A DNA stretch of 64,000 nucleotides, from positions 105,383-169,382 of the forward strand of contig JBAZSF010000001.1 in assembly GCA_041662525.1 (NCBI GenBank), read 5' to 3'. Source of the stretch: Minisyncoccota bacterium. Lineage in GTDB: Bacteria > Patescibacteriota > Minisyncoccia > Phycocordibacterales > UBA9973. The notes below the pieces were generated by a model that worked only from the letters and a program-made list of their open reading frames with translations, did not search any database and was not told the origin of the DNA. Position numbers and translations under genes: made by a program. Of this stretch, positions 4,453 to 51,024 are shown piece after piece (position 1 is the stretch's first letter; every line of letters begins with the position of its first letter).

Positions 4453-5571
4453 TTAAATACCTTCTTTTTTAAGTTCTTCTATAATTTCTCTTGATTTGCG
4501 AGAAAGTTTTGATGGTAATTTGATGTTTAATTTTATTAATAAATCCCCTCTTTTGTTTTTTGCAAAAGGTACTCCTTTGCCACGCACACGTAAAATTTCA
4601 TTTATGGAAACTCCTTCTGGAATCGTTACTTCTATTTCTCCATCTAAAGTTTGGATAGGATATTTAACTCCGAGCAAGGCATCAGAAAGTTTTAAATTTA
4701 AATTCATTACTAGATCATTTCCCTCTCGTTTAAACACAGGATGCGGAGCTACATTTATTTTTATATAAAGATCTCCTGTGGTTCCTTTTGAAACTGCTTC
4801 ACCATAACCCGTCATCCGAATCATCTCACCATCACGGATGCCTGCAGGGATAGCAATAGAAACTTCTTCTTCGCGACGAAGCACTCCTTTGCCTTTGCAT
4901 TTATCACAAATTTCTTTTGGTACTTCACCTGCACCTAAACAAACTTCACAGATTTTTGTACTAGCAATATTGCCAAAAATTGTTCTTTTAGATTCACGAA
5001 TTTTCCCCTGACCATTGCAATGTTTGCAGGTTTCCATTTTAGTTCCAGCTTTCGCACCAGAGCCTCCACATGTCTGACATGTGGAAGTTTTAGTAATTAA
5101 AACTTTTCTAGTTATACCAAAAATAGAATCAGCAAAAGAAATCTGAATCTCGGTGGAAATATCTCTTCCTCGACGTGTTTCTTGTCTTCCTCCTCCCATT
5201 CCACCGCCGAAAAAATCACTAAAAATATCATTGAGATTACCCATATCAAAATCTGCCCCACCGTTTTGGAAACCTGAAAAGTCAAAACCTCCGAAACCTC
5301 CTTGCTGTTGTCCTCCACCATACCCTCCTTGTTGCCCCATATTTTCAAAACCTGATCCATACTGATCATATTTTGAGCGTTTAGTATCATCAGAAAGTAC
5401 TTGATAAGCTTCATTTGCTTGTTTAAATTTTGCTTCATTACCATCTTTTTTATCAGGATGATATTTTTGCGCCAACTTATAAAAAGCCTTCTTTATTTCT
5501 TCTTTGGAGGCAGTTTTATTTACACCTAAAATGTTATAATAGTCTTTGTTCATATGATTTTGCAAAATCAT
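4453..5571 (-). CDS. dnaJ: Chaperone DnaJ (Hsp40)
   Basis: J-domain '[32 protein letters not shown]', Gly/Phe-rich linker, four CxxCxGxG zinc-finger repeats. Only 39 nt downstream of ATPase-1 on the same strand. Confidence 0.95.
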
Positions 5572-5610
5572 GCCGCGTAATTGTCCTTTAAAACGTAGCT
5601 ATTTTGGCTA

Positions 5611-7113
5611 TTATATCATAGGTTCGGCCTCTTGTGAAGTTTTAGTTTTTATTTCAGAATCATCTTCTTTACTCTCTCCTTCCTCACTTGTTTCTTTTGA
5701 TTTTCTTTTAGCTCTTCCTTCAATAATCGCTTTTTCTTCTGCACTTCGAATAATAGTAGCTTCTTCTTCAGCAATGAGTTTCGCCGCATCACCTTTTGGT
5801 ATTGAATATTTCCTACGAGACGATGCTATAACCTCCTCTCTATAAGATGGATGTGTGGGTGGTAGAATTCGTAGAGTTTCCGCAGAAAATGGATCATAGG
5901 ATTCACCATCAATAGTCATTTTAATATAAAATTCTCCAACTGCGAGATTGATCATGTCTTTCACATCAAAAAGTGGCGCAAATTCTGGTTTCATTTTAAC
6001 TGCATCTTCACCACCAATACGAAAAGTAATAACACTTCCACAATTACCAAGCACGGCTTGATGAATTTTAGGTAAAATTTGCCCGACATACTGATGCGCC
6101 ATGGTTAAATTCAGCGCATATTTTCTCGCCTCTGATAAAATATTTTCAAAAGTCTGAGTAACTACATTTTGAAACTCATCTACGTATAAATAAAAGTCTG
6201 TACGATCTTTTTCTGGGATAGCGGCACGCTCCATGCCGGCTTGTTTTATTTTTGTCAAAAACATGGAACCAAGAAATGAAGAATTCTCTTCCCCCAGACG
6301 GCCCTTGGAAAGATTAATTAAAATAATTTTTTGTTCATTCATCAATTTACTAATATCAATCTTATTTTGCTTTTGTCCAAAAATATTTCGAAGCAATGGA
6401 TCAGATAAAAATTGCCCAAGCTTATTTACAAGCGGAATGATCGCGTCAGTGTCGAATTTCTCAGACCAATCAGCGAATTCAATAGCGAAGAATCTTTTAA
6501 CCATGTCATCTGTAATATATTCCACCACCTTCTGTCTGTAATTTCTGTCGGTCAACATTGAGATCATTCCTCGCATCGTAGCGTGCGGATAGTCGAGCAG
6601 GGCCAAACAAGTAAAACGAAAAACGTGTTCTAGGCGTGGTGTCCAGTTTGCTCCGAATTGTTTTTGAAAAACTTCGATCAATCCCTGTGTTAATTGAAAT
6701 TTAAATAATGGATCAACATTTGCTAAAGGATTGAAAGAAGCTGGGAAATCTAAATCTGTAGGGTCGATAATGCAAACATCTTCGATACGTTCTTTTGGGA
6801 TATAATCAAGAATTGCGTTTATTTCATCTCCGTGCGGATCAATCAAACAGATACCATGACCATAGGTAATATCTTGACGCATAAAAAGCTCAAGTAATTT
6901 ACTTTTTCCAACACCGGACTTTCCAATAATATAAAGATGCCTTCGGCGATCTACTCTTTTAATACCAAAAACAAATTTCTTTTCTTCTAATGAAGCGACA
7001 TAATTTGTTCGCCCAATAAAAGAAGCGTCCTCAGGGTTAACTTTACCAAAAACTGGTAATTCTGGTGGTGGTGGTCCGTATTTTATTATTTGCACTCGAT
7101 TCAGCTTGGACAT
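5611..7113 (-). CDS. Soluble TrwB/TraD/VirD4-like (type IV coupling protein family) P-loop ATPase, paralog 1, no TM anchor
   Basis: Walker A 'IGKSGVGKS', then 'LIDPHGDE...IIDPTD' (compare remembered TrwB 'GATGTGKS..VIVDPNGD..IILNPYD'), Walker B 'DFYLYVDEFQNV', 'TMAHQYVGQ'. No N-terminal hydrophobic helices; acidic Ser/Glu-rich C-terminal tail. Confidence 0.65.
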   Translation of the reverse strand: MSKLNRVQIIKYGPPPPELPVFGKVNPEDASFIGRTNYVASLEEKKFVFGIKRVDRRRHLYIIGKSGVGKSKLLELFMRQDITYGHGICLIDPHGDEINAILDYIPKERIEDVCIIDPTDLDFPASFNPLANVDPLFKFQLTQGLIEVFQKQFGANWTPRLEHVFRFTCLALLDYPHATMRGMISMLTDRNYRQKVVEYITDDMVKRFFAIEFADWSEKFDTDAIIPLVNKLGQFLSDPLLRNIFGQKQNKIDISKLMNEQKIILINLSKGRLGEENSSFLGSMFLTKIKQAGMERAAIPEKDRTDFYLYVDEFQNVVTQTFENILSEARKYALNLTMAHQYVGQILPKIHQAVLGNCGSVITFRIGGEDAVKMKPEFAPLFDVKDMINLAVGEFYIKMTIDGESYDPFSAETLRILPPTHPSYREEVIASSRRKYSIPKGDAAKLIAEEEATIIRSAEEKAIIEGRAKRKSKETSEEGESKEDDSEIKTKTSQEAEPMI

Positions 7114-7137: not shown

Positions 7138-8889
7138 CTAGTAAACCTCTTGCTGATAACATTTTTCGCAATACACTATTTCAGGGCGATCGGGAGCATA
7201 GCTCGTCTCAAACTCTATCTCGCACTTACTTGCTCCATGAGAATGATTTGGTTTAGTACACATACAAGACCTATGCCAGAGTTTCATAGGATTACGCATT
7301 TTCAACCTATTTTCATGACGACACAAAAAACATAACCTAGGTAAAGGTACTCCAAGTTTTCGATATAAATTTAATTCATCTATAGTAATTTTATAAGCCC
7401 CTCTACAATAATTACTGAATTTTCCTTTATTTCCACATCCAATAATTTCTTTTGTAATAGAATTTTTAACATCATCTAAATTATCAGGAAAATTTTTTGA
7501 TTCAATTGTTGTTTTATATTCATTTCCTGATCTTTCACGCCATCGATATCCCATTTTAAGTGCCTGTTCCTTCTCTATGGGAAAATAATCTTGTGCCTGA
7601 GTTTCATTGTAGCAAAAAGTAGAAAGTTCACTGGGAAAAAATTCTCCATATTTGTATATAATTCCTCTCTTGTCCACATAGGGTACTTCATTCATTTGTT
7701 CTTTGATTTTTGGAATTAATTTTTCATATTCTTCTTTAAAGTATTGTTTGTTTAAAATACAATATTTTTTATTTCGCACACCAATACAACCAAATAAATT
7801 TGAAGACCCGTGGCAATTAAAAGAATACTCAATATCATTTGAACCATAGATCACACTGCCAAAAAGATTGCGAAAACCGCCTATTCCTGTATCAAATACC
7901 TCATAAAGCATTTCGCCTTCCCCTACTCCAGGCCCAGAATCATAAGCATCTTTAAGACTTTTTACTGACCAATGTGAATATTTTGAATCTTCAATTTGTC
8001 CATTTGCATCAAAACAAATTTTGCAATTTTTTGTACCTTCTAAGTTATCACCTGTTGAATTTACCACCTTTATTTGAACAGCAAAGCGATGCAATGAATT
8101 AAGATATAATTCTTTAAACTTATTTTTAAGTTCTAAAATAGTTTTATAATCTTTAAGATTATATTCAGCTAATTTTCTGTGATATTCTTCCCTAGAAAGC
8201 TGTTCATTCCACATGCAATATGATTTATTGCGCAAATTAGTACAACCAAAACAATCTGTGCATCCTACGCAATCATAAAGAAAATATGAATCTACGCAAC
8301 TTTTACAATTCAGAGAATAAAGTAAATGATAACTGTCCGAACAAATTACATCTTCATAACAAAGCTCAGAACGATTGACAACATATAAATCTGCAGAATC
8401 TTTTGTCCCGGTAATTCTATTAGAATACAAAGTTCTTTCTATTCTCCATGAACCAGAACACATATAGCAGTCCTTGCTAGCTTCTGCGATATTACAATAA
8501 TCGCTATTTGTTGCATTTACATTTGAAAGGGCTTGGAGGGGAATATTATTTCTTAAATTTTTCCACTGTTCAAAAAAAGGTTTAGAAAAATCATATTCTT
8601 TGCCATAAGAAAGCGGATCCCAGCCATCTCCCCACCAAGCATCAGCACAATACACAGTAAGTTTTTCTTCTGGAGGTAAAAAAGAAATAAGCATTTCGTC
8701 ATGACCTGGCGCATCACATTTTCTTTTGAACAAAGACATCTCGTTACGCCAAGTTATACGTCTGATAGTTCTGCATTCCGGACAAAAAGTCGGAGGTGGA
8801 ACTTTCATCTTTTTATAAAAGTTAAAATCCTCTAGTTCGATGACAAAGTCTTGTTTACAATTTTGGCAATTTTTAGTTTCAGAATTCAT
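7138..8889 (-). CDS. Cysteine-rich (~33 Cys) internally duplicated zinc-ribbon protein, paralog 1 of a 3-member family of unknown function
   Basis: 583 aa. N-terminal ribbon 'CQNCKQDF..FNFYKKMKVPPPTFCPECR' and homologous C-terminal module 'LNLYRKLGVPLPRLCFLCR'. Two central Cys clusters each ending 'CFGC..LRNK.YC..N.Q.S.EEY'. Start is 1 nt after the ATPase-2 stop. Confidence 0.6.
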   Translation of the reverse strand: MNSETKNCQNCKQDFVIELEDFNFYKKMKVPPPTFCPECRTIRRITWRNEMSLFKRKCDAPGHDEMLISFLPPEEKLTVYCADAWWGDGWDPLSYGKEYDFSKPFFEQWKNLRNNIPLQALSNVNATNSDYCNIAEASKDCYMCSGSWRIERTLYSNRITGTKDSADLYVVNRSELCYEDVICSDSYHLLYSLNCKSCVDSYFLYDCVGCTDCFGCTNLRNKSYCMWNEQLSREEYHRKLAEYNLKDYKTILELKNKFKELYLNSLHRFAVQIKVVNSTGDNLEGTKNCKICFDANGQIEDSKYSHWSVKSLKDAYDSGPGVGEGEMLYEVFDTGIGGFRNLFGSVIYGSNDIEYSFNCHGSSNLFGCIGVRNKKYCILNKQYFKEEYEKLIPKIKEQMNEVPYVDKRGIIYKYGEFFPSELSTFCYNETQAQDYFPIEKEQALKMGYRWRERSGNEYKTTIESKNFPDNLDDVKNSITKEIIGCGNKGKFSNYCRGAYKITIDELNLYRKLGVPLPRLCFLCRHENRLKMRNPMKLWHRSCMCTKPNHSHGASKCEIEFETSYAPDRPEIVYCEKCYQQEVY

Positions 8890-8890
8890 G

Positions 8891-10894
8891 CTATTCCAAA
8901 ATTTTTCTTAAAACATCTTCGGGAACTTCCTTTGTTGCTGGTTTTTGAGGTATAGGAGTTGCCGAAGGTGAAGCCGTAGGTCCTGAGTTTGTCGAAGGAG
9001 TGATTTTTTCCTCAATCAAATCTTTTAATTTATTCATATCTTCTGCTGTGGCTGCACGATCTACGCCTATTGGACGAGCAGGTTTTTTTACTTCTTGCAT
9101 TTTATTTTTTAAAGAATCGAGCGAAATAGGAGTTGGGGTTGAAATAGGTGCTGGGGTAGATTTAGCTTCTACCACTACTTTATTTAAAACATCCTTTAAT
9201 GCTGAGGTATCCCTATTTATTGGATAAGTTGACTTGGGCCTGACTGGATAAGTAGGTGTAGGTTTAATTGGGGCTGGTTTGGTAAATACTTTTTTAAAAG
9301 TCTTAATTATTCCAGCAGGTTTTACAGGGGCGGTAGTTTGTTGAAATTCGATACCTAAATCAGCTAGTGGTTTATAAAATTTAGATTCATCATATTTGAT
9401 TTGATCTTGTCCCCTTTTTTCCACCTTTACTTCTCCGGATTTTATTTTTGCAATACATTCTTTACAATAAGCTGCTCGGCCCGGCTCAGGTTTAAAGGGC
9501 ACTGTTTTTTCTAGTTTACAAAGCGAACAAATTACTGGAAATTTTTCTATATTTCCATTGGTAGTATATGTATCACTACCTAATGACATTCCGCTCCATT
9601 CATTAATTTCTCGCTCCACTACCTCCCTAGACCTACAATAAATGGCACGGGAAGATTGTATTACTGCTTCTTCTATTTTTTTATCCCCAGACTTTACCAT
9701 GGGTGGTAAAGTCTTAGCGGAGAATGGACGGGATGTCACACCATCAATCATTAACTTTAAATAAATTTTATAGTTCGGCAAATTAACAATATCTCCCGGA
9801 GTAAATTCTGGATCAAATTCTTTTTCCAAAAAGTCTGCATCGTCCGAACCAACTCTAAAAACTATCATTGTACCTACGTTACCAAAGACAGCATCACGCA
9901 CCGCAGAGCTTTTATCCACCACGAGCTGTGCAGTATACTGATGCGCCACAGTTAGATTTAGTCTGTACTTTCTAGCTTCAGACAAAATACCAGCAAAAGC
10001 ATCTGTCACAAAGTTTTGGAATTCGTCCACATAGAGATAAAAATCTTTTCGATGTTCTTCGGGAATACGCACGCGTTCCATGGCGGCAAGTTGAATCTTA
10101 GTAATGATCATCCCACCCAAAAGCCCAGAATTGTCTTCACCGATGCGTCCTTTGGAAACGTTCACTAGAAATATCTTCCCATCATTCATAATATCAAAAA
10201 TATTAATAGTACTTTTAGATTGACCGACTACGTTTCGAATAATAGAAGTAGAAAGAAATTGTCCGACTTTATTTTGAATCGGAGCGATAGCTTCATTGCG
10301 AAATTTGTCTTGCCAAGCTTCATATTCATGCACCCAAAAAGCTTTGATCACGGGATCTTTTAAATTAGCAATTATTTTTTGACGATAATCCTTGTCCACC
10401 AGCATTCTAGGGATTCCCAAAAGCGTCGTCCCGGGAGTATCTAGCAATGCTAAAATACAATTATTCAAAATGTATTCCATTCGAGCACTCCAAGCATTCG
10501 CCCAGATTTTAGTAAAAATACCCATGAGTCCAGACGCCACTAAATGTTTATATTGCGGATCAATTAATTCTAAAACATTAAAACCAATATGGTAGTCCAC
10601 ATCTGCGGGATTAAAATAAACTACGTCTTTCATGCGCTCCGGCGGAATAGCAGACAAAACTCCTTCGACGAGTTCCCCGTGCGGATCAACCACACAAACA
10701 CCTTCACCGTTCTGAATATTCTGAATGATCATATTAAACATCAATACAGATTTACCCGAACCAGATTTTCCAAGAATATAAACATGCTGACGTCTGTCCT
10801 TGCGCTTGATACCAAAGAGCTGATTTTTATCACGAAAAGTTGTGAGCCCAAGATAAGTAATTTCTCTATTTATAGGTATTTCTGGAAGTTCCAT
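8891..10894 (-). CDS. Soluble TrwB/VirD4-like P-loop ATPase, paralog 2, with C-terminal CxxC..CxxC zinc ribbon and Pro/Thr-rich tail
   Basis: 'ILGKSGSGKS', 'VVDPHGE', 'FYLYVDEFQNFV', 'TVAHQY'. C-terminal 'CSLCKLEKTVPFKPEPGRAAYCKECI' followed by a P/T/S-rich low-complexity region (~230 aa). Confidence 0.65.
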   Translation of the reverse strand: MELPEIPINREITYLGLTTFRDKNQLFGIKRKDRRQHVYILGKSGSGKSVLMFNMIIQNIQNGEGVCVVDPHGELVEGVLSAIPPERMKDVVYFNPADVDYHIGFNVLELIDPQYKHLVASGLMGIFTKIWANAWSARMEYILNNCILALLDTPGTTLLGIPRMLVDKDYRQKIIANLKDPVIKAFWVHEYEAWQDKFRNEAIAPIQNKVGQFLSTSIIRNVVGQSKSTINIFDIMNDGKIFLVNVSKGRIGEDNSGLLGGMIITKIQLAAMERVRIPEEHRKDFYLYVDEFQNFVTDAFAGILSEARKYRLNLTVAHQYTAQLVVDKSSAVRDAVFGNVGTMIVFRVGSDDADFLEKEFDPEFTPGDIVNLPNYKIYLKLMIDGVTSRPFSAKTLPPMVKSGDKKIEEAVIQSSRAIYCRSREVVEREINEWSGMSLGSDTYTTNGNIEKFPVICSLCKLEKTVPFKPEPGRAAYCKECIAKIKSGEVKVEKRGQDQIKYDESKFYKPLADLGIEFQQTTAPVKPAGIIKTFKKVFTKPAPIKPTPTYPVRPKSTYPINRDTSALKDVLNKVVVEAKSTPAPISTPTPISLDSLKNKMQEVKKPARPIGVDRAATAEDMNKLKDLIEEKITPSTNSGPTASPSATPIPQKPATKEVPEDVLRKILE

Positions 10895-13626: not shown

Positions 13627-15351
13627 CTAATAAATTTCTTGTTGATAACAACGTTCACAGTAAACTATTTCTGGTCGATCTGGCGCGTAACTAGTCTCAA
13701 ATTCTACTTCACATTTTTGTGTGCCATGTATGTGATTTTTTTTATCACACATACATTGCCTACGAAAAAAAAGAGGTAAATTTCGTAAGGTTAAACGTTC
13801 ATAATGCCGACAATTAATGCAAAAACGCGGTAATGGAAGATTCATTCTTTTTAAAAAATCAAGTTCTGATTTGATTATGCGAAAAGCCCCGGTGCATTCG
13901 TGTTCACAAGACTCATCGTGTGCACATTGAATAGCCTGATTAAGTATGTCATCACTTACATCATTGATATTATCTAAGATGTCTTTATTTTTTAAAGTAA
14001 ATTTATAATTTTGTTTTGTAGTTTCGTACCACGAAAACCCTTTCCTCTTTGCATCTTCTTTACCCAATGGAAAAAATTCGTAAGCAGTAGTTGCTTTGTA
14101 TGGAAAAAAAGAAAATTCACTTGGGAAAAATTCTCCATATTCTTTTGCTTGTTTCATATGTTCAATTATTTTGGGCACTAATTTTACATATTCTTCTTTT
14201 GTGTACTGTTTATTAAAAATACAATATTGCTTATTTCGAAGCGAAACACATCCAAAAAGATCTGATGAATTACTGCAAAAAACACAATAAGTTAAATTTT
14301 TTACATTTGTATAACAATAAGCACTAAATTTTATATTTGATCCCCCATTTCCAACAATAAGACTTTCGTAAATAAGTTCTACATTTTCTCCATAATTTGA
14401 ATAATCATAGCAATCCTTTACAGGTCCCATTAAAATATTTTGGACAAATTTGCTATCTTCCACCATCCTTACACGAAAACAATATTTTGCATTCTTAGAC
14501 CCATAAACATAATCACCAGAAACATTCACATTTTGACGATCGTGAATATATTTTTGCGGGTAATCAAGCCAATGTTTATATACCTCATCTTTTAATACTC
14601 TTAAGGCTTTATTAGAACCTAAATTTAATTCTTTAATATTTTTTAAATAATCTTCTCTAGAATATTGTTTATTAAAAATGCAATATGATTTATTGCGAAG
14701 ATTAATTGAACCAAAACAACTATTGCATCCAATACAATCTTTACACAAAATCATTTCCTGACAACTCTCACAATCAACAGAAAAAAATGTTTTATAACAA
14801 GCTGTAGTATTAATATTTCCATAACTCAATTCACATTGATTTGTCATATGGCTATCAAAGCATTGTTTAGAACCCTTATCCCAAATTAAATATGCAGAAT
14901 CTTCCGCATAAGAGACTCCTCCTCGAACCAAATAACAATTTTTTACATCATGCACATTAGTGCAATAGTAACAATTCACTAAATTATACATAGAATGCGC
15001 AGGTAGTGGCACCCTTAAAAGTAAACTTTTAAACTGTTCGAAAAATGTTTTTGTAAAATCAAAATCACGAGCATACTCAAGTGGATTCCAGGCATCAGAA
15101 ATCCAATAATCTCGATCATATATTTTATAAGGACTTTCTTCGGGAAAAAGTGAAAAAATTTCTTTTCCACCAAGAGCTTCCTTTTTCTTAAATAAATGCC
15201 AATCATTACGCCAGGCCATTCTTCGCTGCATCCTGCATTCCGGACAAAAAGTAGGCGGAGGTACTTTTATCTTTTCATAAAAATTAAAATCCTCCGGCTC
15301 TATGACAAATTCTTTCTTACAATTTTGGCAATTTTTTGTTTCAGATTTCAT
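13627..15351 (-). CDS. Cysteine-rich internally duplicated zinc-ribbon protein, paralog 2
   Basis: 574 aa. First ~45 and last ~30 residues are almost identical to paralog 1 ('MKSETKNCQNCKKEFVIEPEDFNFYEKIKVPPPTFCPECR' and 'KCEVEFETSYAPDRPEIVYCERCYQQEIY'); middle region divergent. Confidence 0.6.
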   Translation of the reverse strand: MKSETKNCQNCKKEFVIEPEDFNFYEKIKVPPPTFCPECRMQRRMAWRNDWHLFKKKEALGGKEIFSLFPEESPYKIYDRDYWISDAWNPLEYARDFDFTKTFFEQFKSLLLRVPLPAHSMYNLVNCYYCTNVHDVKNCYLVRGGVSYAEDSAYLIWDKGSKQCFDSHMTNQCELSYGNINTTACYKTFFSVDCESCQEMILCKDCIGCNSCFGSINLRNKSYCIFNKQYSREDYLKNIKELNLGSNKALRVLKDEVYKHWLDYPQKYIHDRQNVNVSGDYVYGSKNAKYCFRVRMVEDSKFVQNILMGPVKDCYDYSNYGENVELIYESLIVGNGGSNIKFSAYCYTNVKNLTYCVFCSNSSDLFGCVSLRNKQYCIFNKQYTKEEYVKLVPKIIEHMKQAKEYGEFFPSEFSFFPYKATTAYEFFPLGKEDAKRKGFSWYETTKQNYKFTLKNKDILDNINDVSDDILNQAIQCAHDESCEHECTGAFRIIKSELDFLKRMNLPLPRFCINCRHYERLTLRNLPLFFRRQCMCDKKNHIHGTQKCEVEFETSYAPDRPEIVYCERCYQQEIY

Positions 15352-15408: not shown

Positions 15409-17097
15409 TTAATTTATATTTTGCTTGTAACATTCTTCACAGGCGATTTTTTGATATCCCCATTCTGGTAAATAATACGCTTCAATATCTTTTTTACAAT
15501 AAAAACATTTATATGAATACGCTTGCAAAACAGTTAAATATTTTAAACTATTTTTTATTCTCACATCAAAATGATAACGCGGGAGCGGTATATTATTTTC
15601 TTTATAAAAAGAAAGTTCATTTTGGGCAATATTAAAACGCCAACCTGTTTCTGGGCATAAAAGTGCCTGAGTGATAATAGTATCCGAAACATCTTTCACA
15701 TCATCAGGAAGTTCGTTTGTAGGCATCCCATCTGTCTGACCTTCTGTTGTATCTTCCCAATAACCACCAATCTTTAGCATATCTTCTTTTTTTGTGTTTG
15801 GAAAATAAAAAAACCCAGTAGAGAAATTAAATGGTCCAAGACTCATGGAATAAGGCAAAAATTTTCCATACTCACCTCTTTTTTTCATATCAGAAATAAT
15901 CTCATCCCGTAATTTTTCATATTCCTCTTTAGAATACTGCTTATTTAAAATACAATATTTCTTTTTCCTCAAACCCACACAACCAAAACAATATTCACAC
16001 TCAATACATAAATCTAAATATTCGGAATATCTAGAAGAAGACCAGCTAGAATATTTGAGAGCATAACCGCTGGGTTGGCAAGAACTACAATTCCCTGATA
16101 TTTCTAAATCCTGACAGCCGGTAATATCAATACAAGATTCCAATCCTCTACCCCTAATACAATTAGAACAATCTTCGGATTCTGAAATCGTAAAACAATT
16201 ATGACAATTTTTACAATCCAATAAATAATCTCCAAAAGAATTATGAACTTTTAAATTAAAATTAGGTCTATGCACTACTTCTTCTTGAACTATTTCTTCA
16301 AAATGTTTTTTATGCTTTTGGATAGAATCATAGGAACCAAGTTGAAATGATTTGATTTTTTTATCATATTCTTCTTTGGAGTATTGAACATTTTCTATGC
16401 AAAAAGATTTATTGCGAAGATTCCAGCACATAAAACAATCCTGACAATTCCGACAGTCATATAAAAAGTAAGAATTTATGCAATCTCGAGAATGTTTAGA
16501 GTAAAAAAGTTTATAAGAATGATGGCACTCAGAAGAGTCAAAACATTTTTCACTATTGTAACAAACTATCACATCAATAGAATTTTTTACATTGATGTTT
16601 CTATATGAATAAAATAAGTTTTCACAATCCACCATAGAACGTGAAAGATAACTATCTTTACAACTCCAAACATCATCGCACCAATCACATCCTGTGCTTT
16701 TACTACCATCTTGATGCGGACGAGGCACTTTTTCTTGGAGATTTTTTAATTGCTCAAAAAATGTTTTTTTCTCATCGTAATCTTCTCCATAATTCATTGC
16801 ATCCCATTTATCGCTGTACCATTCAGAAAGAGTGTAGATTGGATATCTGCTATTCTCCGGCAAAACTGTAATCAAACTTTCTCCAGAAAGATCAGATTTA
16901 CCTTTGCGAAATTTTCCAAATACCCAAAAAGACAAGTGCAATTTTACCCGACAGAAAAAACAAAGTGTCGGCAACTCTATATCAACTTTTTTATATAAAG
17001 ATAATTCTCCTTCTGTAATTAAAAAATTATTTCCACAATGCTCACAAATATTAGTTTGTTGGTTCTTTGTATTCATATACATTGACCCTCGCGGCAC
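15409..17097 (-). CDS. Cysteine-rich internally duplicated zinc-ribbon protein, paralog 3 (most divergent; start codon ambiguous, overlaps grpE 3' end)
   Basis: 562 aa. N-terminal 'CEHCGNNFLITEGELSLYKKVDIELPTLCFFCR', central 'CRNCQDCFMCWNLRNKSFC', 'CFGCVGLRKKKYCILNKQYSKEEY', C-terminal 'CFYCKK...CEECYKQ'. Alternative starts: MYMNT at 17082 or MNT at 17076. Confidence 0.55.
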   Translation of the reverse strand: MPRGSMYMNTKNQQTNICEHCGNNFLITEGELSLYKKVDIELPTLCFFCRVKLHLSFWVFGKFRKGKSDLSGESLITVLPENSRYPIYTLSEWYSDKWDAMNYGEDYDEKKTFFEQLKNLQEKVPRPHQDGSKSTGCDWCDDVWSCKDSYLSRSMVDCENLFYSYRNINVKNSIDVIVCYNSEKCFDSSECHHSYKLFYSKHSRDCINSYFLYDCRNCQDCFMCWNLRNKSFCIENVQYSKEEYDKKIKSFQLGSYDSIQKHKKHFEEIVQEEVVHRPNFNLKVHNSFGDYLLDCKNCHNCFTISESEDCSNCIRGRGLESCIDITGCQDLEISGNCSSCQPSGYALKYSSWSSSRYSEYLDLCIECEYCFGCVGLRKKKYCILNKQYSKEEYEKLRDEIISDMKKRGEYGKFLPYSMSLGPFNFSTGFFYFPNTKKEDMLKIGGYWEDTTEGQTDGMPTNELPDDVKDVSDTIITQALLCPETGWRFNIAQNELSFYKENNIPLPRYHFDVRIKNSLKYLTVLQAYSYKCFYCKKDIEAYYLPEWGYQKIACEECYKQNIN

Positions 17098-44655: not shown

Positions 44656-45342
44656 GTGCTATACTACACATGTATGAATAAAACAAACTACAAATCAATA
44701 TTTTTTGGCTTATCAATGTTAGCTTTTAGTTTATGGGTCACACCCGTAAAAGTTCTTGCTACAGCTGGTTATGTTGATAATCCAACCCCTTATATTACAT
44801 ACATCACCCCAAATTCTAGTAATGGTAATATTGGATCAAACTTAGTCATTGCGATTACAGGAAATGGATTTATTCCAAGCTCAATCGTTAGAGTCAATGG
44901 TTCTGATCGCAAAACAACTTTTATAGATTACTCCCATATTCTAGTTAGAATAAATCCAAATGATACCTACAACACTGATGGATTCTACATTAATATTTTC
45001 AATGGATTTCCTGGAGGAGGATATTCTAATTCAGCATTATTTACCATAAATAATAACAACAATGACTCCTCTACTATAACCAGAACTAATACGAACACAG
45101 GAAACAATACCTATAACTCAAACAGCACTTATTCAAATACAAATCAAACAGATACTACTAATACAAATTCAGACTCTAGCAACCTCGCTTCCGCAGCTAT
45201 TTTCGGATCAAATAACTTCCTCCCTTCCGGCTTGATCCAGTGGATATTGTTTGCCATAGTAATTCTACTTATCGTCATCCTTGCAAGAAAAGTTTTCGGG
45301 GCTACAGCAAAATACAACGAAGCACCGATGAAGACTCCGTAA
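44656..45342 (+). CDS. Cell-surface protein: signal peptide, Ig-like (IPT/TIG-like) domain, Asn/Thr/Ser-rich low-complexity stalk, C-terminal TM anchor
   Basis: 'ITYITPNSSNGNIGSNLVIAITGNGFIPSSIVRVNGS', then 'NNNNNDSSTITRTNTNTGNNTYNSNSTYSNTNQTDTTNTNSDSS', then C-terminal 'IQWILFAIVILLIVILARKVF'. Confidence 0.45.
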   Translation: MLYYTCMNKTNYKSIFFGLSMLAFSLWVTPVKVLATAGYVDNPTPYITYITPNSSNGNIGSNLVIAITGNGFIPSSIVRVNGSDRKTTFIDYSHILVRINPNDTYNTDGFYINIFNGFPGGGYSNSALFTINNNNNDSSTITRTNTNTGNNTYNSNSTYSNTNQTDTTNTNSDSSNLASAAIFGSNNFLPSGLIQWILFAIVILLIVILARKVFGATAKYNEAPMKTP

Positions 45343-45570: not shown

Positions 45571-46566
45571 ATGATAGAAATAGGATTATTTTTTTTGGTG
45601 ATATTAATGCTATTCCCATTCACAGCGTATTCACTCTCAACTCTTGATGTTTTTTTTACCCGCCTAGAAAGCGGTAGCATTAAGTTTATTAAAACTGGGG
45701 ATGGACTCCGGGAGATAATCTATAATACCCCTGGATACAAACTAGTGGATGGAAAATCTGGAATAAAAGAATTCCAGCCCACAGACGAAAAACAAAAACG
45801 TCCATGGTTGGGACTATACTGGATTGGGTTGCCACCTTTTGCAAAAGTGCATAAATTCAAAATAACAAAGGAGACCGAAAATCCAACGGGGAAAACACCA
45901 GAAGATTGGATTCTGGGAGGCAAAGAAGAGTTCATTGTAGATAGCCTTAGATTTATTTTTCCACGGCCTTATGTATTGAAGGCAGTGGAACTGAAAGACA
46001 GAACATCGGTTGATGTTCTGGTATTAGCGAAGTTTGAAGTTGTAAGACCTTTCGTTCCTGTTTTTTATTTCAAAGGCAAATTTTTTGAAAACGCGGGGGC
46101 TGACATTAGGGCCACTATAATAGACATTCTCAAGGAATATACTCTTGAGAAGTTTGTTACAGAAGCAAAAAAAGGAGAAGAGGGAGGGGTTCTTGCTGTA
46201 ATGAAAGAACCTAATGGAATTTTCAATAAAACCCTAATAGAGCAAGTTGGACTTCGTATTACTGGGATTTCGATCCCACAATACGACCCATCTGACAAAG
46301 CATTAAGGGAAGCTATGAACGCCCGGACTATTGCTAAAGAGCAGGGTCAGGCAATAATAGCAACAGCGAACGCAAACGCGGAAGCACAAGAGCGTCTTGC
46401 GATTGCTCAAAGAATTCAAATTAAAGAAATGGTTGAGGGCTTTGGTGGAGACACCAAAGCTACAGCAGAAGTTATGAGAGCACAAGCGCTCGCAGGAGGG
46501 AGTATAACAACACTGGTAGACGGTAAAGCGTCAGCTGTTGTGCCTGTAGGGGGTGAAAAATCATGA
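45571..46566 (+). CDS. SPFH/band-7 (stomatin/flotillin-like) membrane protein
   Basis: N-terminal TM, SPFH body, C-terminal Ala/Glu-rich coiled coil 'AKEQGQAIIATANANAEAQERLAIAQ'. Confidence 0.65.
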   Translation: MIEIGLFFLVILMLFPFTAYSLSTLDVFFTRLESGSIKFIKTGDGLREIIYNTPGYKLVDGKSGIKEFQPTDEKQKRPWLGLYWIGLPPFAKVHKFKITKETENPTGKTPEDWILGGKEEFIVDSLRFIFPRPYVLKAVELKDRTSVDVLVLAKFEVVRPFVPVFYFKGKFFENAGADIRATIIDILKEYTLEKFVTEAKKGEEGGVLAVMKEPNGIFNKTLIEQVGLRITGISIPQYDPSDKALREAMNARTIAKEQGQAIIATANANAEAQERLAIAQRIQIKEMVEGFGGDTKATAEVMRAQALAGGSITTLVDGKASAVVPVGGEKS

Positions 46567-47132
46567 TTCATCTGATTTGGATCATCCCGATAGGGATGAT
46601 AATATTTATCATCGCGTCCACTAAGTGGCGCCCACGAATTCCCAATATCCCGCACTTTCATTGGGGATGGCTTGTACCAATTGTGATAGTAGTAGTGGTT
46701 GTAGTTGGTTACTACCTCTACTCATCACATAAGGCAACAGCAAAAGTGGATAAAAAGCAAATGAAAAACGTCCTCGTGTGCAAAGACGAGGAGACCGAAA
46801 AGTGGGTGAAAATCCCACCAGGTTTTTACAAGGAAGGGGGTTCGGGAGAGTGTGTCGAGGGCACACCTCCGCCGCCTCCGGCACGGGCAACCAGAACTGC
46901 AGGAAAACATAAAACACTTTATGTTTTCCTGCCTGATGGGTGTATCACAAAACACCTTTCGGGAAATTGGGAAAGGTATCCCAAGGGAGGAGCAATAAAA
47001 TTCCTAAACTCCCAAGGGAAAGTAGTCTTGATTGACGAACCAGGTACTTATGTACCCTCGTCATTACCTGCAGGAGAGTACAAGATCTGCAAGGTAAGCC
47101 TCGATGCATGGGGCGTCGAGATCTGGGAATAA
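46563..47132 (+). CDS. Membrane protein translationally coupled (ATGA overlap) to the SPFH gene; candidate short NfeD-like partner
   Basis: 2 N-terminal TM helices, Pro-rich linker 'GTPPPPPARA', C-terminal beta-rich domain; GC content (~50%) clearly above genome average. Confidence 0.4.
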   Translation: MIHLIWIIPIGMIIFIIASTKWRPRIPNIPHFHWGWLVPIVIVVVVVVGYYLYSSHKATAKVDKKQMKNVLVCKDEETEKWVKIPPGFYKEGGSGECVEGTPPPPPARATRTAGKHKTLYVFLPDGCITKHLSGNWERYPKGGAIKFLNSQGKVVLIDEPGTYVPSSLPAGEYKICKVSLDAWGVEIWE

Positions 47133-47251: not shown

Positions 47252-47548
47252 TTACCTCAATTGCACTTTACTATTCTTTGGATCTATTTGATCTGATATT
47301 CCTAAAGTATTCAATACAATACTGAGAATAGTCCAAACTCCCATCATAATAGTAATACCGATAATTCCCCAGATCATATGACTTTTACCAGTTGTCTTTT
47401 TCTCTTCATTTTCTTGATTGGAAAGAAATTCAAACATTCCATAAAGAAAATACACAATAGCTAAAGCAAAAAGAAGTCCGATAAGTGGGTTTATGATCAT
47501 GTTATCAACATTCCGAATAAATTCATTTAAGCTAGTGGCTTGAAACAT
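47252..47548 (-). CDS. VirB2/TrbC-like (T4SS pilin-type) small membrane protein, no cleavable signal peptide
   Basis: Two hydrophobic helices separated by a charged loop 'SNQENEEKKTTGKSHMIWGIIGITIMMGVW'; same module as four neighbouring genes. Confidence 0.45.
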   Translation of the reverse strand: MFQATSLNEFIRNVDNMIINPLIGLLFALAIVYFLYGMFEFLSNQENEEKKTTGKSHMIWGIIGITIMMGVWTILSIVLNTLGISDQIDPKNSKVQLR

Positions 47549-47592
47549 AAACTATTTTTGTAGACAAAAAATCCATATTATAATTTAATTTA

Positions 47593-47976
47593 TTACTGTT
47601 GTATTGTCGGCAAAATAATACTTGAATCATTAGTCCCTGTAAGATTAAAAGTATTAGTTAAAATATTTACAAGCCCCCACAAAGCTACAATAACAGCTAA
47701 ACCAATAACGCCGTAAATTATTCTGTCTCTACCTTTTGACTTTGCTTCTTCATCATCAGAGATTACATAACTGACAACTCCCCACACAAAGAAAACTACT
47801 GCTAAAGCAATTAAAACTGGAACAACAGCATTAAGAAGCTGACCAATTTTACATAATACTCCTCCTAAATTTTCAATTGGTCCTGCATTACAAGTAGCAC
47901 CAGTAGTAGCTGCTAATGCAGCAATAGGCATAAAGCTTAAAACAAAACCTGACAATACAATTAATTTCTTTTTCAT
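47593..47976 (-). CDS. VirB2/TrbC-like pilin-type protein (signal peptide + 2 TM with charged loop)
   Basis: 'MKKKLIVLSGFVLSFMPIAALAA', two Cys in the mature N-terminus, 'VVFFVWGVVSYVISDDEEAKSKGRDRIIYGVIGLAVIVALWGLVNIL'. Confidence 0.5.
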   Translation of the reverse strand: MKKKLIVLSGFVLSFMPIAALAATTGATCNAGPIENLGGVLCKIGQLLNAVVPVLIALAVVFFVWGVVSYVISDDEEAKSKGRDRIIYGVIGLAVIVALWGLVNILTNTFNLTGTNDSSIILPTIQQ

Positions 47977-47978
47977 AA

Positions 47979-48040
47979 TTGATTTTACGAAATCATGTCG
48001 CGCAATCGTCCATTAAAGCGCGACTTAAACTAATAATAAA
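47979..48040. promoter_or_regulatory. Conserved 5' leader/promoter element of pilin-like genes, copy 1 (contains GTCGCGC...GCGCGAC inverted repeat ~25 nt upstream of ATG)
   Basis: ttgattttacgaaatcatgtcgcgcaatcgtccattaaagcgcgac... is ~90% identical to 49691-49755. Confidence 0.6.
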
Positions 48041-48107
48041 AGCGACCTTATAATAATAAACTAATAATGTTCTTTAATTATACCCCCTCCAAAAAATCAA
48101 AGCAAAT

Positions 48108-48917
48108 TTATTGAGGAGGAATAACTTTTGGAAGAACGTTCATGCCACTAATACCAAAAGTACTTCCCAATATTCCTACTAATCCCCAGACAGACAACAT
48201 CACTGCCAAGGCAATAATCCCCCAGATCATAAATTGCTTGCCTTGTTCCCTCTTTGCCTCTTCATCAGCATTAATAATAAAAAATTGCACTACACCCCAA
48301 ACAAACATCACGGTAGCTAAAGCAAAAATCAAAGGAATAATTGAATCATTGATAATTTTAGTGATATAACACAATACATCTTGAAATTTTGGTTCACCAG
48401 CGAGACTGCAAGTGGTGCCATTCCCCCCAGTCACAGCTAAAGTAGAAATAGATGGAGGAGTAGCGCCACTAAGACCGAAAGTATTTACGACAATATTCAC
48501 TAAACCCCACAAACCAACGACAACCGCAAAGCCGATAATACCGTAAATTATCCTGTCTTTCCCTTTTTCCTTTGCCGCTTCTTCGTCAGAGATGACGTAT
48601 TGCACTACCCCCCAGACAAAATAAACCACTCCCAAAGCAATCAAAACTGGAAGAATAGAATTTAGAAGTTGCTTTAATTGACATATTATTTTTCCAAGAC
48701 CAGTTAAAGCATTACAAGATGAAGACAATTGTCCTGATGGTATACATGGTTGATTTGTAGCTATATTAGTTATAGGATCCACGATACAAGATTCATTAGG
48801 ATTAGGTACAGAAGCGTGAATTCCAAAAATTGGAATAAATAACCCAAAAAGTATAACTAATATAGTAATACCAAAACTAAATTTAAATATTTTTTTCTTC
48901 ATAAATTTACAATGCAA
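48108..48917 (-). CDS. Tandem-fused double pilin-like protein (two VirB2-like modules in one polypeptide); start probably MKKKIF at 48902
   Basis: Module 1 '...VLIALGVVYFVWGVVQYVISDEEAAKEKGKDRIIYGIIGFAVVVGLWGLVNIV'; module 2 '...LIFALATVMFVWGVVQFFIINADEEAKREQGKQFMIWGIIALAVMLSVWGLVGIL'. Confidence 0.5.
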   Translation of the reverse strand: MHCKFMKKKIFKFSFGITILVILFGLFIPIFGIHASVPNPNESCIVDPITNIATNQPCIPSGQLSSSCNALTGLGKIICQLKQLLNSILPVLIALGVVYFVWGVVQYVISDEEAAKEKGKDRIIYGIIGFAVVVGLWGLVNIVVNTFGLSGATPPSISTLAVTGGNGTTCSLAGEPKFQDVLCYITKIINDSIIPLIFALATVMFVWGVVQFFIINADEEAKREQGKQFMIWGIIALAVMLSVWGLVGILGSTFGISGMNVLPKVIPPQ

Positions 48918-49272
48918 GCACTGTCGCTGATATCATTTTAGCGATAGCCCATGATCCTAATAATATTCCTGCACCGACTATAGTCCAAGTAAGAGCGTCT
49001 TTGGCTTTGGTAATTGCTTCTGGATTACCTCTCGCCGACACAAAAAGAAAACCACAGTAAATAATAGCTAGAGCTATGATAGGTATGCTGATTTTTAGCG
49101 CACCTTCTAAGATAGTTTGAATAAGGCCTGGAATTGAAGTAAAACGACCTTCTCCTAATGGATTAACAATTTTGCCTTGAGTAGGATCAGAATTGGGACC
49201 ATCAGCAAAAGAAATAATAGGAACGATAAACACATAAACAATTAAAACTAATTTCTGCCAATTTTTTTTCAT
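48907..49272 (-). CDS. VirB2/TrbC-like pilin-type protein (start trimmed to MKKNWQKL signal peptide)
   Basis: 'MKKNWQKLVLIVYVFIVPIISFA' then 'IPIIALAIIYCGFLFVSARGNPEAITKAKDALTWTIVGAGILLGSWAIAKMI'. Confidence 0.5.
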   Translation of the reverse strand: MKKNWQKLVLIVYVFIVPIISFADGPNSDPTQGKIVNPLGEGRFTSIPGLIQTILEGALKISIPIIALAIIYCGFLFVSARGNPEAITKAKDALTWTIVGAGILLGSWAIAKMISATVLAL

Positions 49273-49288
49273 AAAATTTATAATTATA

Positions 49289-49690
49289 TTATATACCATC
49301 TGATAAAGGATTAAAACCAAGCCAACTACCTTCATAACCCAAGATTGATAATACTGTCCGAATAATTAAAAAAGCAGCTACCGCGATGATCAACCCAAAG
49401 ACTGCATTAAAAAAGATACCTTTTGCTTTTGTTCTAGCGCCTGCTACCTCCCCACCTGCTGTTATTAAAAGAAAACCAGCATAAGCAAACATTATAGCTG
49501 CTATAGGTATAACCAGATTAAAAAGAATAAAATGAATGACTTTATTTATTAGTGCCATAAAGGCATTAAAGTCACAAAGTTTTTCAGCTGAATTATCACA
49601 GGGAACTAAACCATCTGCTAAAGAAAGAGCTGGCACGATAAGAATTAAAAATATTAAGATTGAGATTATAATTTTTTTTGTTTTTTGCAT
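49289..49690 (-). CDS. VirB2/TrbC-like pilin-type protein
   Basis: Signal peptide 'ILIFLILIVPALSLA', 2 Cys, 'IPIAAIMFAYAGFLLITAGGEVAGARTKAKGIFFNAVFGLIIAVAAFLII'. Confidence 0.5.
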   Translation of the reverse strand: MQKTKKIIISILIFLILIVPALSLADGLVPCDNSAEKLCDFNAFMALINKVIHFILFNLVIPIAAIMFAYAGFLLITAGGEVAGARTKAKGIFFNAVFGLIIAVAAFLIIRTVLSILGYEGSWLGFNPLSDGI

Positions 49691-49755
49691 TTGATTTTAC
49701 GAAATCATGTCGCGCAATCGTCCACTAAAGCGTGACGCTATTTAAATAATAAAAG
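49691..49755. promoter_or_regulatory. Conserved 5' leader/promoter element of pilin-like genes, copy 2 (overlaps 3' end of the solute-binding-protein gene)
   Basis: ttgattttacgaaatcatgtcgcgcaatcgtccactaaagcgtgacg... matches 47979-48040. Confidence 0.6.
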
Positions 49756-51024
49756 ACTCAATTTGGTGTTTGCATCTTTGATCGCATCTGCTACCGACAT
49801 ATTGTTAGAAATCACTGCATTGATCATTTCACTAAAAATAGTATCAGTATTTTTAGATGCTGGGTCAAGCCAACTCTTTGCATATAGTGCTGAATCGTAA
49901 AAAATAGGAGAGTATGCATCTTGTGGTTTAATAGCAAGCAAATCTCTGCGTGCGGGAGGCATACCTGTTACCGTCGAAAATTTTGAAGCAAAATCCCCCG
50001 TAGCCATCAAGCTCGCAGCGAGAAAAGCTGTGCTGATATTTTTAGAAAAAGAAGAAATAGCAACTCCGGTCACTCTGGCTCCAGTTACTTTAGCAGTAGA
50101 ATTCTTAATTTGAGGCATAGGGGCAACAAAGAAATTTTGATTAGGATTTCTTTTTACCATAGATTGAAGTTCAGATGCATATCCAAAGTAGAAAGCTAAA
50201 TCCTCCCTTGAAAAAGCGTCATTGGAATTTGGGAAAGATCTATTCCAGGAATACACTGCATTGTTTGGATTGGCAAAATCTGTATAGAATTTTAACATTG
50301 AAGGAAGGTTAAAGCTTCCAATAGACGAACCTAAAGTCGAACTCAAAACTCCATCTTTTTCTTTTACTATAGGGTTACCTGCCTGCATAAAAAGAGTAGC
50401 GAGTATGTCTTTGAAATGAACTATGTTTGAAGAATATCCAAATGCTAATGCGCTTTTTGTTATTTTGTTTGAATCATCTTTTTTGGTAAGAGTAGGCACG
50501 ATATTTACCATCTCTTCCCAAGAAGATGGAGGATAAATAATTCCATTTGCATCAAGGATGCTCCTATTGTAATACATCATAAGCGGATCAATAGAGATTG
50601 GGAAAGCTAAAATACCGCTACCAGTTAGAAACACTTCTCCCGCGCCTGCAAAATTATTCTTAAATGAGGTCAAAGAATAACTCTGATACGGAATAGTAAA
50701 AATTTTATTAGTGTAATGAAAAACTAAATCATCAGACAAGAAAAACATATCTGGTCCTGTCCCAGAAGCAGAAGCTTCTAGTAGGTCTTGGTCAAAAGTG
50801 TCGGCAGATTTTTGTACATAAGTGACAACAAAAGTAGGATTAGCATTATTAAAATCCCTCATTACGTTAGATATTGTTGCATTTGGTACTGTTCCCCATA
50901 AAACTACTTTACCGAGACTCCCTGTACTAGTCTTCCCGACTGGGATTGCGCCAGAAAAAACCAAAACACCCAAAATAGCTGCAGCAATAAATATAACCAA
51001 AAAGATTATTTGAAAATTCTTCAT
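49738..51024 (-). CDS. Extracellular solute-binding protein (ABC-transporter SBP family 1-like), N-terminally membrane-anchored
   Basis: N-terminal TM 'IIFLVIFIAAAILGVLVF', 428 aa; weak family-level call. Confidence 0.45.
   Translation of the reverse strand: MKNFQIIFLVIFIAAAILGVLVFSGAIPVGKTSTGSLGKVVLWGTVPNATISNVMRDFNNANPTFVVTYVQKSADTFDQDLLEASASGTGPDMFFLSDDLVFHYTNKIFTIPYQSYSLTSFKNNFAGAGEVFLTGSGILAFPISIDPLMMYYNRSILDANGIIYPPSSWEEMVNIVPTLTKKDDSNKITKSALAFGYSSNIVHFKDILATLFMQAGNPIVKEKDGVLSSTLGSSIGSFNLPSMLKFYTDFANPNNAVYSWNRSFPNSNDAFSREDLAFYFGYASELQSMVKRNPNQNFFVAPMPQIKNSTAKVTGARVTGVAISSFSKNISTAFLAASLMATGDFASKFSTVTGMPPARRDLLAIKPQDAYSPIFYDSALYAKSWLDPASKNTDTIFSEMINAVISNNMSVADAIKDANTKLSLLLFK

Follow-up and report, generated by a model that had tools for sequence, protein, structure and literature searches.

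A conserved tandem array of probable VirB2-like pilin genes on a patescibacterial chromosome

Introduction

What does a patescibacterium do with five small membrane proteins encoded in tandem among its housekeeping genes, and to which machine might they belong? We address this question for a stretch of 64,000 nucleotides from a Minisyncoccota bacterium (assembly GCA_041662525.1, contig JBAZSF010000001.1, positions 105,383 to 169,382 of the forward strand), referred to below as the window. The nearest relatives of this genome are labelled Candidatus Nomurabacteria or Paceibacterota. A preliminary description of the window had proposed that five consecutive minus-strand genes of 98-269 aa, at positions 47252-49690, form an array of type IV secretion system (T4SS) pilins. 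All five open reading frames (ORFs) lie where that description placed them, and we number them p1 (lowest coordinates) to p5 (highest; Table 1). We put a probability of about 0.65 on the locus being a chromosomal, vertically inherited operon of Sec-exported VirB2-like pilin paralogues for a Patescibacteria-type T4SS, a function that we infer.

Few machines have been shown to be essential to Patescibacteria in their epibiotic life, and the T4SS is one of these; a putative pilus of this system would be without precedent among monoderm T4SSs. VirB2-like pilin arrays from Patescibacteria have already been published, and this locus is a further member; it adds no new kind of system and instead sharpens the picture for Nomurabacteria and Paceibacteria. 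Its one detail that has been less described is the fused double pilin; the multi-module pilins and the fixed kit of six modules merit a closer look.

Five genes encode six modules

All five proteins contain a module in which a short loop of mixed charge ([S/N]-D/E-E-E-A-K-x-K-G-K/R) links two hydrophobic helices; the loop peptides SDDEEAKSKGRDRI, NADEEAKREQGKQF and SARGNPEAITKAKD are found in the proteins of the array. A hydropathy scan identified a signal-peptide-like N-terminal helix followed by two hydrophobic helices in p2, p4 and p5, and a signal helix followed by four helices in p3. On a heuristic reading, the leaders of p2-p5 consist of a lysine-bearing n-region, an h-region and an AXA-like cleavage site (ALA/A, IHA/S, SFA/D and SLA/D, with the slash marking the site). 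The shared module of the preliminary description stands for the helices and the charged loop in all five proteins and for the signal peptide in p2-p5. Its 'W.L' ending is present in p2 and p3 (LWGLV), p1 and p4 fit it loosely, and p5 lacks it. A conserved cysteine pair also stands directly before helix 1 in p2, in both modules of p3 and in p5.

The genes lie close together, with gaps between neighbours of -47 to +131 nt. The earlier count of five genes was right, but p3 is a fusion of two pilins, which brings the number of pilin modules to six (1-1-2-1-1 in gene order). In p3, a signal peptide and a Cys-rich linker precede module 1, and a linker of ~30 aa with a Cys pair leads on to module 2. 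The AlphaFold2 model of p3 accordingly consists of two hairpins (H69-104/H108-141 and H173-210/H215-248), and that of p5 of a signal helix and one hairpin (H41-77/H83-117; predicted local distance difference test score, pLDDT, 74). Helix pLDDT in the two models is about 75-90.

The start sites of three genes differ, or may differ, from the longest ORF. Public gene calls on identical DNA match our ORFs, except that p3 starts at the ATG at 48902; this is most likely the true start and gives a protein of 264 aa. Judging from the N-termini of its orthologues, p4 probably begins at the internal MKKNWQ (about 49272), which would leave 121 aa. The orthologues of p1 carry an N-terminal extension, 'MDFxSTKIAy', that is out of frame in this genome. 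A remnant of that start (ATG GAT TTT TTG TCT ACA AAA, MDFLSTKI...) lies at 47549-47576 on the minus strand, 28 nt upstream of the ATG used here, and its frame reaches a TAG. Either this genome's p1 no longer has the short extension at its N-terminus, or the assembly contains an erroneous homopolymer indel.

The proteins belong to the T4SS_pilin family

The top Pfam family of all five proteins is PF18895 (T4SS_pilin), with E-values for p1 to p5 of 1.1e-9, 1.1e-12, 2e-20, 8.9e-9 and 2.3e-5 and matches that span almost all 71 positions of the model. Four proteins, p1-p4, pass the gathering score (26.6 bits), and p5 falls just under it (24.8 bits). We nevertheless place p5 in the family because of its orthologues and a profile-profile comparison: of 40 sampled orthologues, all 40 match PF18895 at E<=0.01 (best 2.9e-9) and 24 match TrbC, and an hhalign comparison of the p5 family with the p3 family gave a probability of 96.7 % (E 3e-10).

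The classical TrbC/VirB2 family (PF04956, gathering score 27.9 bits) gave full-length, sub-threshold matches to p4 (25.4 bits, E 1.7e-5, positions 9-98 of 98), p5 (19.5 bits, E 1.2e-3) and p2 (17.0 bits), while the profile search found no match for p1 or p3. At the level of sequence, this is consistent with a superfamily relationship to PF04956 rather than family membership. Among NCBIfam models, the best match of all five is NF045849, the Mbov_0395 pilin-like conjugal transfer protein, although for p5 only at E 0.67. Here p3 alone exceeds the cut-off of 40 bits, with 45.9 bits as the sum of its two modules, followed by p1 (39.6), p2 (34.7), p4 (29.1) and p5 (9.7). Weaker NCBIfam matches were to IncI1 TraQ and other conjugation proteins. 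The T4SS-pilin identity first suggested from the letters was thus upheld, by PF18895 for every protein and by PF04956 below threshold for three.

Short hydrophobic proteins can inflate the scores of hidden Markov models (HMMs), and weak matches to many membrane families do appear lower in the match lists. It nonetheless seems very improbable that these are unrelated small two-transmembrane proteins, such as holins or bacteriocin immunity proteins, that match the pilin model by hydrophobic composition. PF18895 ranks first for all five over nearly its full length, at E-values as low as 2e-20. The family also has hallmarks of its own in the conserved loop motif and in the positions where Trp, Gly and Pro do not vary. 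An HMM built from the modules matches only these five ORFs within the window. The preliminary description had named holins and immunity proteins as the alternative to be checked by profile search; no such family is significant, and none outranks the pilin families. The array also lies in core chromosome and not in a prophage.

A holin, immunity protein or prophage was accordingly rejected as a candidate, with no supporting profile match and a housekeeping context. A tblastn search with p4 against 72,556 plasmids gave no match, probably due to low-complexity masking.

Each position of the array has its own orthologues

To what extent is the array conserved? This too had been left as a check. 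When one genome per GTDB species was scanned, 191 genomes proved to encode a relative, and 80 loci were fetched. In nearly all of these loci (about 80 species), the genes form the same block, gyrA-methyltransferase-SBP-p5-p4-p3-p2-p1, in which SBP denotes a solute-binding-protein gene. Downstream of the block, relatives carry a gene for a TIG/CoaZ surface protein and IF-2. At least 73 of the arrays in other species' loci are complete. Of these 73, 52 consist of five genes and 20 of six; the module architecture is exactly 1-1-2-1-1 in 46, and a multi-module gene is present in 69.

In two close genomes, positional orthologues are 63-81 % identical to the paralogues of the window. Compared with their own neighbours, the window paralogues show 22-37 % identity, except for p2 and module 1 of p3 (63 %). 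Taking the window proteins as reference, the identity of positional orthologues ranges from 45 to 86 % across the roughly 80 species, with medians of 56 % for p5, 57 % for p4, 60 % for p3, 58 % for p2 and 62 % for p1. These medians (56-62 %) are close to those of the neighbouring SBP (65 %) and methyltransferase (68 %); the median for GyrA is 87 %. Since each position has its own orthologue family, we regard the five as old, fixed, vertically inherited core genes and not as a rapidly diversifying cassette.

The preliminary description had suggested antigenic or functional diversification, and the two halves of this suggestion fare differently. A set of interchangeable pilin versions serving antigenic or host-range variation has been proposed for Bartonella and Anaplasma, and such versatility has been raised as a speculation for patescibacterial arrays (PMC12102498); the 22-37 % identity within the array would fit it. 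However, each position can be followed through an orthologue of its own in about 80 species, pilin evolution is about as slow as that of the SBP and the methyltransferase, gene number and order are nearly fixed, and we noticed no silent cassettes, repeats or recombination signatures. We therefore consider the antigenic half largely refuted and improbable. The functional half is favoured, as positional orthology in these sequences argues for distinct, non-redundant roles of the paralogues. In Nomurabacteria and Paceibacteria, the paralogues are core genes, each conserved in its own right, which speaks for distinct structural roles and against antigenic variation.

Fused pilins are widespread in the family

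To see p3 in a wider context, p2 can be compared with its relatives at large. Used as a query against 1.84 billion representatives, it retrieved 7,226 relatives at E<=1e-3. Among the best 150 of these 7,226, two modules are present in 46 and three in 11, proportions that are biased upward because the scores of multiple modules add up. The search also found metagenomic polypilins made of many VirB2-like hairpin modules: P0455 (1775 aa) has at least 12, P0461 (966 aa) at least 9 and P0491 (552 aa) 6. A Cys pair stands in every inter-module linker of these polypilins. Multi-module pilins are widespread in the family, and at this type of locus the double pilin is the rule. In the literature searched, we found no description of VirB2-like multi-module fusions.

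In the topology proposed below, each hairpin would begin and end outside the membrane, which would explain how modules can be fused head to tail. The polypilins imply that pilus subunits are chained covalently or that polyprotein precursors are cut between modules. Fused pilins also constrain the geometry of assembly, as it must be possible to join neighbouring subunits through their N- and C-termini.

The array lies far from recognisable secretion genes

The window is a piece of chromosome that encodes DnaB, RecR, CysRS, DnaJ/DnaK/GrpE, ribosomal proteins, RpoA, AlaRS, ClpB, IF-2, GyrA, Mur ligases and SecA. We searched it for T4SS genes with Pfam on all ORFs of at least 110 aa, nested or overlapping ones aside, and with NCBIfam on selected ORFs. 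No VirB4, VirB3, VirB6, VirB8 or VirB11 was found among them, in line with the earlier remark that VirB4, VirB6 and VirB11 are missing from the window. Walking outwards from SecA in the source metagenome-assembled genome and two relatives, we encountered only housekeeping genes for a further ~10 kb. With both searches, the stretch in which none of these VirB genes was found spans 47 kb on one side of the array and about 25 kb on the other. In this clade, at least 25-47 kb separate the array from virB4, and its pilin genes can be encoded distant from virB4.

The two VirD4-like ATPases of the preliminary description were recovered as weak matches of the type IV coupling protein (T4CP) kind (Table 1), with the Pfam families T4SS-DNA_transf and TrwB_AAD_bind just over their gathering scores. 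The combination of an N-terminal transmembrane anchor and a TraG/TrwB nucleotide-binding domain over curated cut-offs, by which VirD4-type coupling proteins are recognised, is found in neither. According to published work, a patescibacterial genome has about two T4CP homologues; these mostly lie distant from virB4 and are possibly exapted, and the ATPases of the window agree with this pattern.

In many assemblies, the contig ends 10-30 kb past the array on the gyrA side. The last ORF at such an end, that of a 671,958-bp contig of GCA_028718635.1, encodes a LAGLIDADG homing endonuclease (L088 592-1023). Together, these observations suggest that assemblies break there at a repeat, such as an rRNA operon with an intron.

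We also considered a mobile conjugative element. This was rejected, as the window holds no relaxase and no integrase and synteny is kept across about 80 species.

Weighing a role in secretion

Several observations weigh against a T4SS role for these proteins. With no T4SS gene nearby, the physical link that defines many such arrays is missing at this locus. Both VirD4-like ATPases are soluble, and all NCBIfam T4CP models score far under cut-off. All scores to the TrbC/VirB2 family PF04956 are under the gathering threshold, and p1 has, by the hydropathy scan, two helices and no signal peptide. Sequence-profile searches of the PDB with the family alignments of p3 and p5 returned no relatives. 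Fold searches did not discriminate, the nearest Foldseek match being a non-significant one to the ATP-synthase c-subunit hairpin; such searches are uninformative here, since thousands of unrelated structures match a helical hairpin. No visualised pilus of PF18895 proteins was reported in the literature searched. Lastly, of six Nomurabacteria genomes with the same syntenic array, one is listed as VirB4-negative, although its assembly is smaller, scaffold-level and incomplete (Table S1, PMC12102498).

The other five of these six genomes are VirB4-positive (Table S1, PMC12102498), and virB4 in Paceibacteria has been published to lie typically near dnaA/dnaN. Taken together, this makes it unlikely that T4SS genes are lacking elsewhere in the genome.

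Might the proteins instead form a hetero-oligomeric complex of the membrane or envelope, such as a ring or channel, that works independently of any T4SS, perhaps with the orphan SBP in uptake or envelope organisation? The distance from any virB4 would suit such a complex, as would the constant linkage to an SBP_bac_1 gene with no ABC permease or ATPase nearby. A fixed set of paralogues with covalently fused modules is what a defined stoichiometry would call for, and the match to the c-subunit hairpin, though non-significant, would fit as well. However, all the profile evidence leads to conjugation or T4SS pilin families, the same family has been published to stand beside virB4 in most Patescibacteria, and the SBP linkage could be mere conserved gene order in a reduced genome. 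We consider a T4SS-independent complex unlikely.

If the proteins are indeed T4SS pilins, knowledge of the VirB2, TrbC and TraA pilins and the literature on Patescibacteria suggest how they might work. The pro-pilins would be inserted via Sec/YidC and their leaders removed by signal peptidase I. The mature hairpins would then wait in a membrane pool with both ends outside and the loop in the cytoplasm, until a Patescibacteria-type (mating-pair-formation, MPF, FATA-like) VirB4 T4SS encoded elsewhere in the genome extracts and assembles them. The product may be a filament resembling a pilus, or else a conduit outside the cell, and would be employed where the cell touches its host. Each of the five fixed paralogues would take its own structural place (shaft, base, tip or adaptor, for example), with none redundant or interchangeable. 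A more specific proposal is that the fixed six-module, five-gene kit of Nomurabacteria, set apart from virB4 and co-oriented with the SBP gene, builds a defined heteromeric filament or conduit, possibly for host uptake; this we hold only tentatively, and it is rather doubtful.

Relation to known pilin systems

Predicted pilins in series were described by Wang et al. (2023) as an essential part of the T4SS cluster of Southlakia epibionticum (PMC10633639). A 2025 review speaks of six 'structurally conserved but sequence-divergent' Southlakia pilins and raises the possibility of a pilus conduit in a monoderm (PMC12857230). Quinonero-Coronel et al. (2025) searched 3,035 Patescibacteria genomes with PF18895 and PF04956 (PMC12102498). 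They found VirB2-like genes in 1,948 VirB4-positive assemblies, near virB4 in 1,135 of the 1,948, and catalogued 441 arrays of 2-11 pilin genes with a mean identity of about 25 %. In their definition, the 2-11 pilin genes stand in tandem or with one non-pilin gene between them, in a genome that has VirB4 or a T4SS as well, often no more than 20 coding sequences away. By their arrangement, the five adjacent genes of the window form such a tandem array.

Compared with these published arrays (Ca. Southlakia epibionticum ML1, the 'Sec-secreted array' of Nanosynbacter lyticus TM7x and the 441 catalogued), ours shares the family PF18895. Both consist of divergent tandem paralogues (mean identity about 25 % there, mostly 22-37 % here), and both lie on the chromosome away from any relaxase. 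Southlakia has six pilins, as many as there are modules here. Unlike arrays in or beside a virB4 cluster, however, this one stands between gyrA-methyltransferase-SBP and housekeeping genes, and one of its genes is a fused double pilin. Published arrays are most abundant in Microgenomatia and Saccharimonadia, whereas this one belongs to Paceibacteria/Nomurabacteria, where positional orthology would favour fixed roles over variation.

The resemblance to classical VirB2/TrbC proteins (PF04956; the Agrobacterium T-pilin and RP4 TrbC) lies in the signal peptide (here in p2-p5), the two hydrophobic helices and the short polar loop. The differences are the sub-threshold score, the monoderm host and the lack of VirB5, VirB7, VirB9 and VirB10 partners. 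To our knowledge, neither a Cys pair before helix 1 nor multi-module fusion is a feature of classical VirB2. Mbov_0395/MMCAP2_0565 (NF045849), from the integrative and conjugative elements of Mycoplasma, is likewise small, has two helices and belongs to an MPF-FATA-type system of a monoderm. This protein of 80 aa lacks a leader, however, and serves conjugation from a mobile element, while here there are five paralogues, mostly with signal peptides, on the core chromosome.

Tandem amplification of virB2 is also seen in Bartonella and Anaplasma. Their arrays are thought to serve antigenic or host-range variation, in contrast to the ancient and individually conserved paralogues described here. 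By description only, the array can also be likened to the archaeal Ced/Ted DNA-import pili (CedA1/TedC; PMC9905601), whose VirB2-like pilins are chromosomal. Ced/Ted is a non-conjugative T4SS derivative and a precedent for import over export (PMC9905601), but it is archaeal and not known as a multi-paralogue array.

Expression and neighbouring genes

Table 1. Coordinates of the pilin genes, regulatory elements and other genes discussed in the text. Positions are those of the window; a slash marks the signal-peptide cleavage site.
Feature	Position	Strand	Description
p1	47252-47548	-	98 aa; PF18895 38.7 bits; signal peptide absent
p2	47593-47976	-	127 aa; signal peptide ALA/AT, Cys pair, hairpin; PF18895 48.2 bits
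p3	48108-48917	-	269-aa ORF; locus tag WC671_00850; two modules; PF18895 73.1 bits over two stretches
p4	48907-49335	-	142-aa ORF; signal peptide SFA/DG; PF18895 35.7 bits
p5	49289-49690	-	133 aa; WC671_00860; signal peptide SLA/DG, conserved Cys31/Cys39, helical hairpin; PF18895 24.8 bits
Leader element, copy 1	49691-49738	-	~48 nt; abuts p5 ATG; 7-bp hairpin/palindrome, then ATGATTTCGTAAAATCAA
Leader element, copy 2	47979-48026	-	abuts p2 start codon
Leader element, copy 3 (diverged)	5554-5601	-	before dnaJ
Stem-loop	47197-47228		perfect 14-bp stem; between p1 and convergent 189-aa membrane-protein gene; from terminator scan
SBP_bac_1 homologue	49738-51024	-	solute-binding-protein homologue; 428 aa; Pfam E 4e-15; predicted N-terminal transmembrane segment
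VirD4-like ATPase	5611-7113		weak T4CP-type match; no transmembrane segments
VirD4-like ATPase	8891-10894		weak T4CP-type match; no transmembrane segments
Surface protein	44656-45342	+	228 aa; signal peptide, 'choice-of-anchor Z' PGGG repeat/TIG-like domain, Asn/Thr-rich linker, C-terminal transmembrane anchor
Two membrane-protein genes	45571-47132	+	convergent with array; divergent SPFH/Band_7-like protein (331 aa, 22.9 bits, just sub-cut-off) and 189-aa protein with two transmembrane segments
Zinc-ribbon paralogue	7138-8889	-	soluble, 560-583 aa
Zinc-ribbon paralogue	13627-15351	-	soluble, 560-583 aa
Zinc-ribbon paralogue	15409-17097	-	soluble, 560-583 aa

A short leader element occurs before p5 and p2 and, in diverged form, before dnaJ (Table 1). 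Its consensus is GCGTCGCGC-TTTAATGGACGATT-GCGCGAC-ATGATTTCGTAAAATCAA followed, after 0-5 nt, by ATG, with a TAAAAT 3-5 nt ahead of the ATG. The window has exactly two copies of the identical 33-nt core, where 0 would be expected by chance. Other Nomurabacteria genomes carry the element before p5, p3, p2, the SBP gene or a small gene ahead of gyrA. Across 17 copies, 91.6 % of cells in the hairpin are paired, and three pairs show compensatory changes. The element has no Rfam match; it could be a promoter for near-leaderless mRNAs, an operator or a structure of the 5' untranslated region. The copies at p5 and p2 suggest two expression units, p5-p4-p3 and p2-p1. A scan for sigma-70 promoters was uninformative on operon structure. 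The stem-loop downstream of p1 probably acts as a terminator in both directions and ends the pilin operon.

The SBP gene stands directly upstream of p5 in the same orientation, and the order SBP-p5-p4-p3 is found in 75 of 81 loci. A Pfam scan of the window ORFs found no gene for an ABC permease or ATPase near it. The SBP is a conserved neighbour that may be part of the pilin system.

On the other side of the array, the gene for the 228-aa surface protein is kept near the array in 62 loci. At the position of the two convergent membrane-protein genes, relatives have Band_7 genes with low sequence conservation.

Further away, the three paralogous soluble proteins share an N-terminal zinc-ribbon/treble-clef motif (KNCQNCK...FCPECR) and matched no other known domain. 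One of them is encoded between the two VirD4-like ATPases, of which the one at 8891-10894 has a CxxC-x17-CxxC finger.

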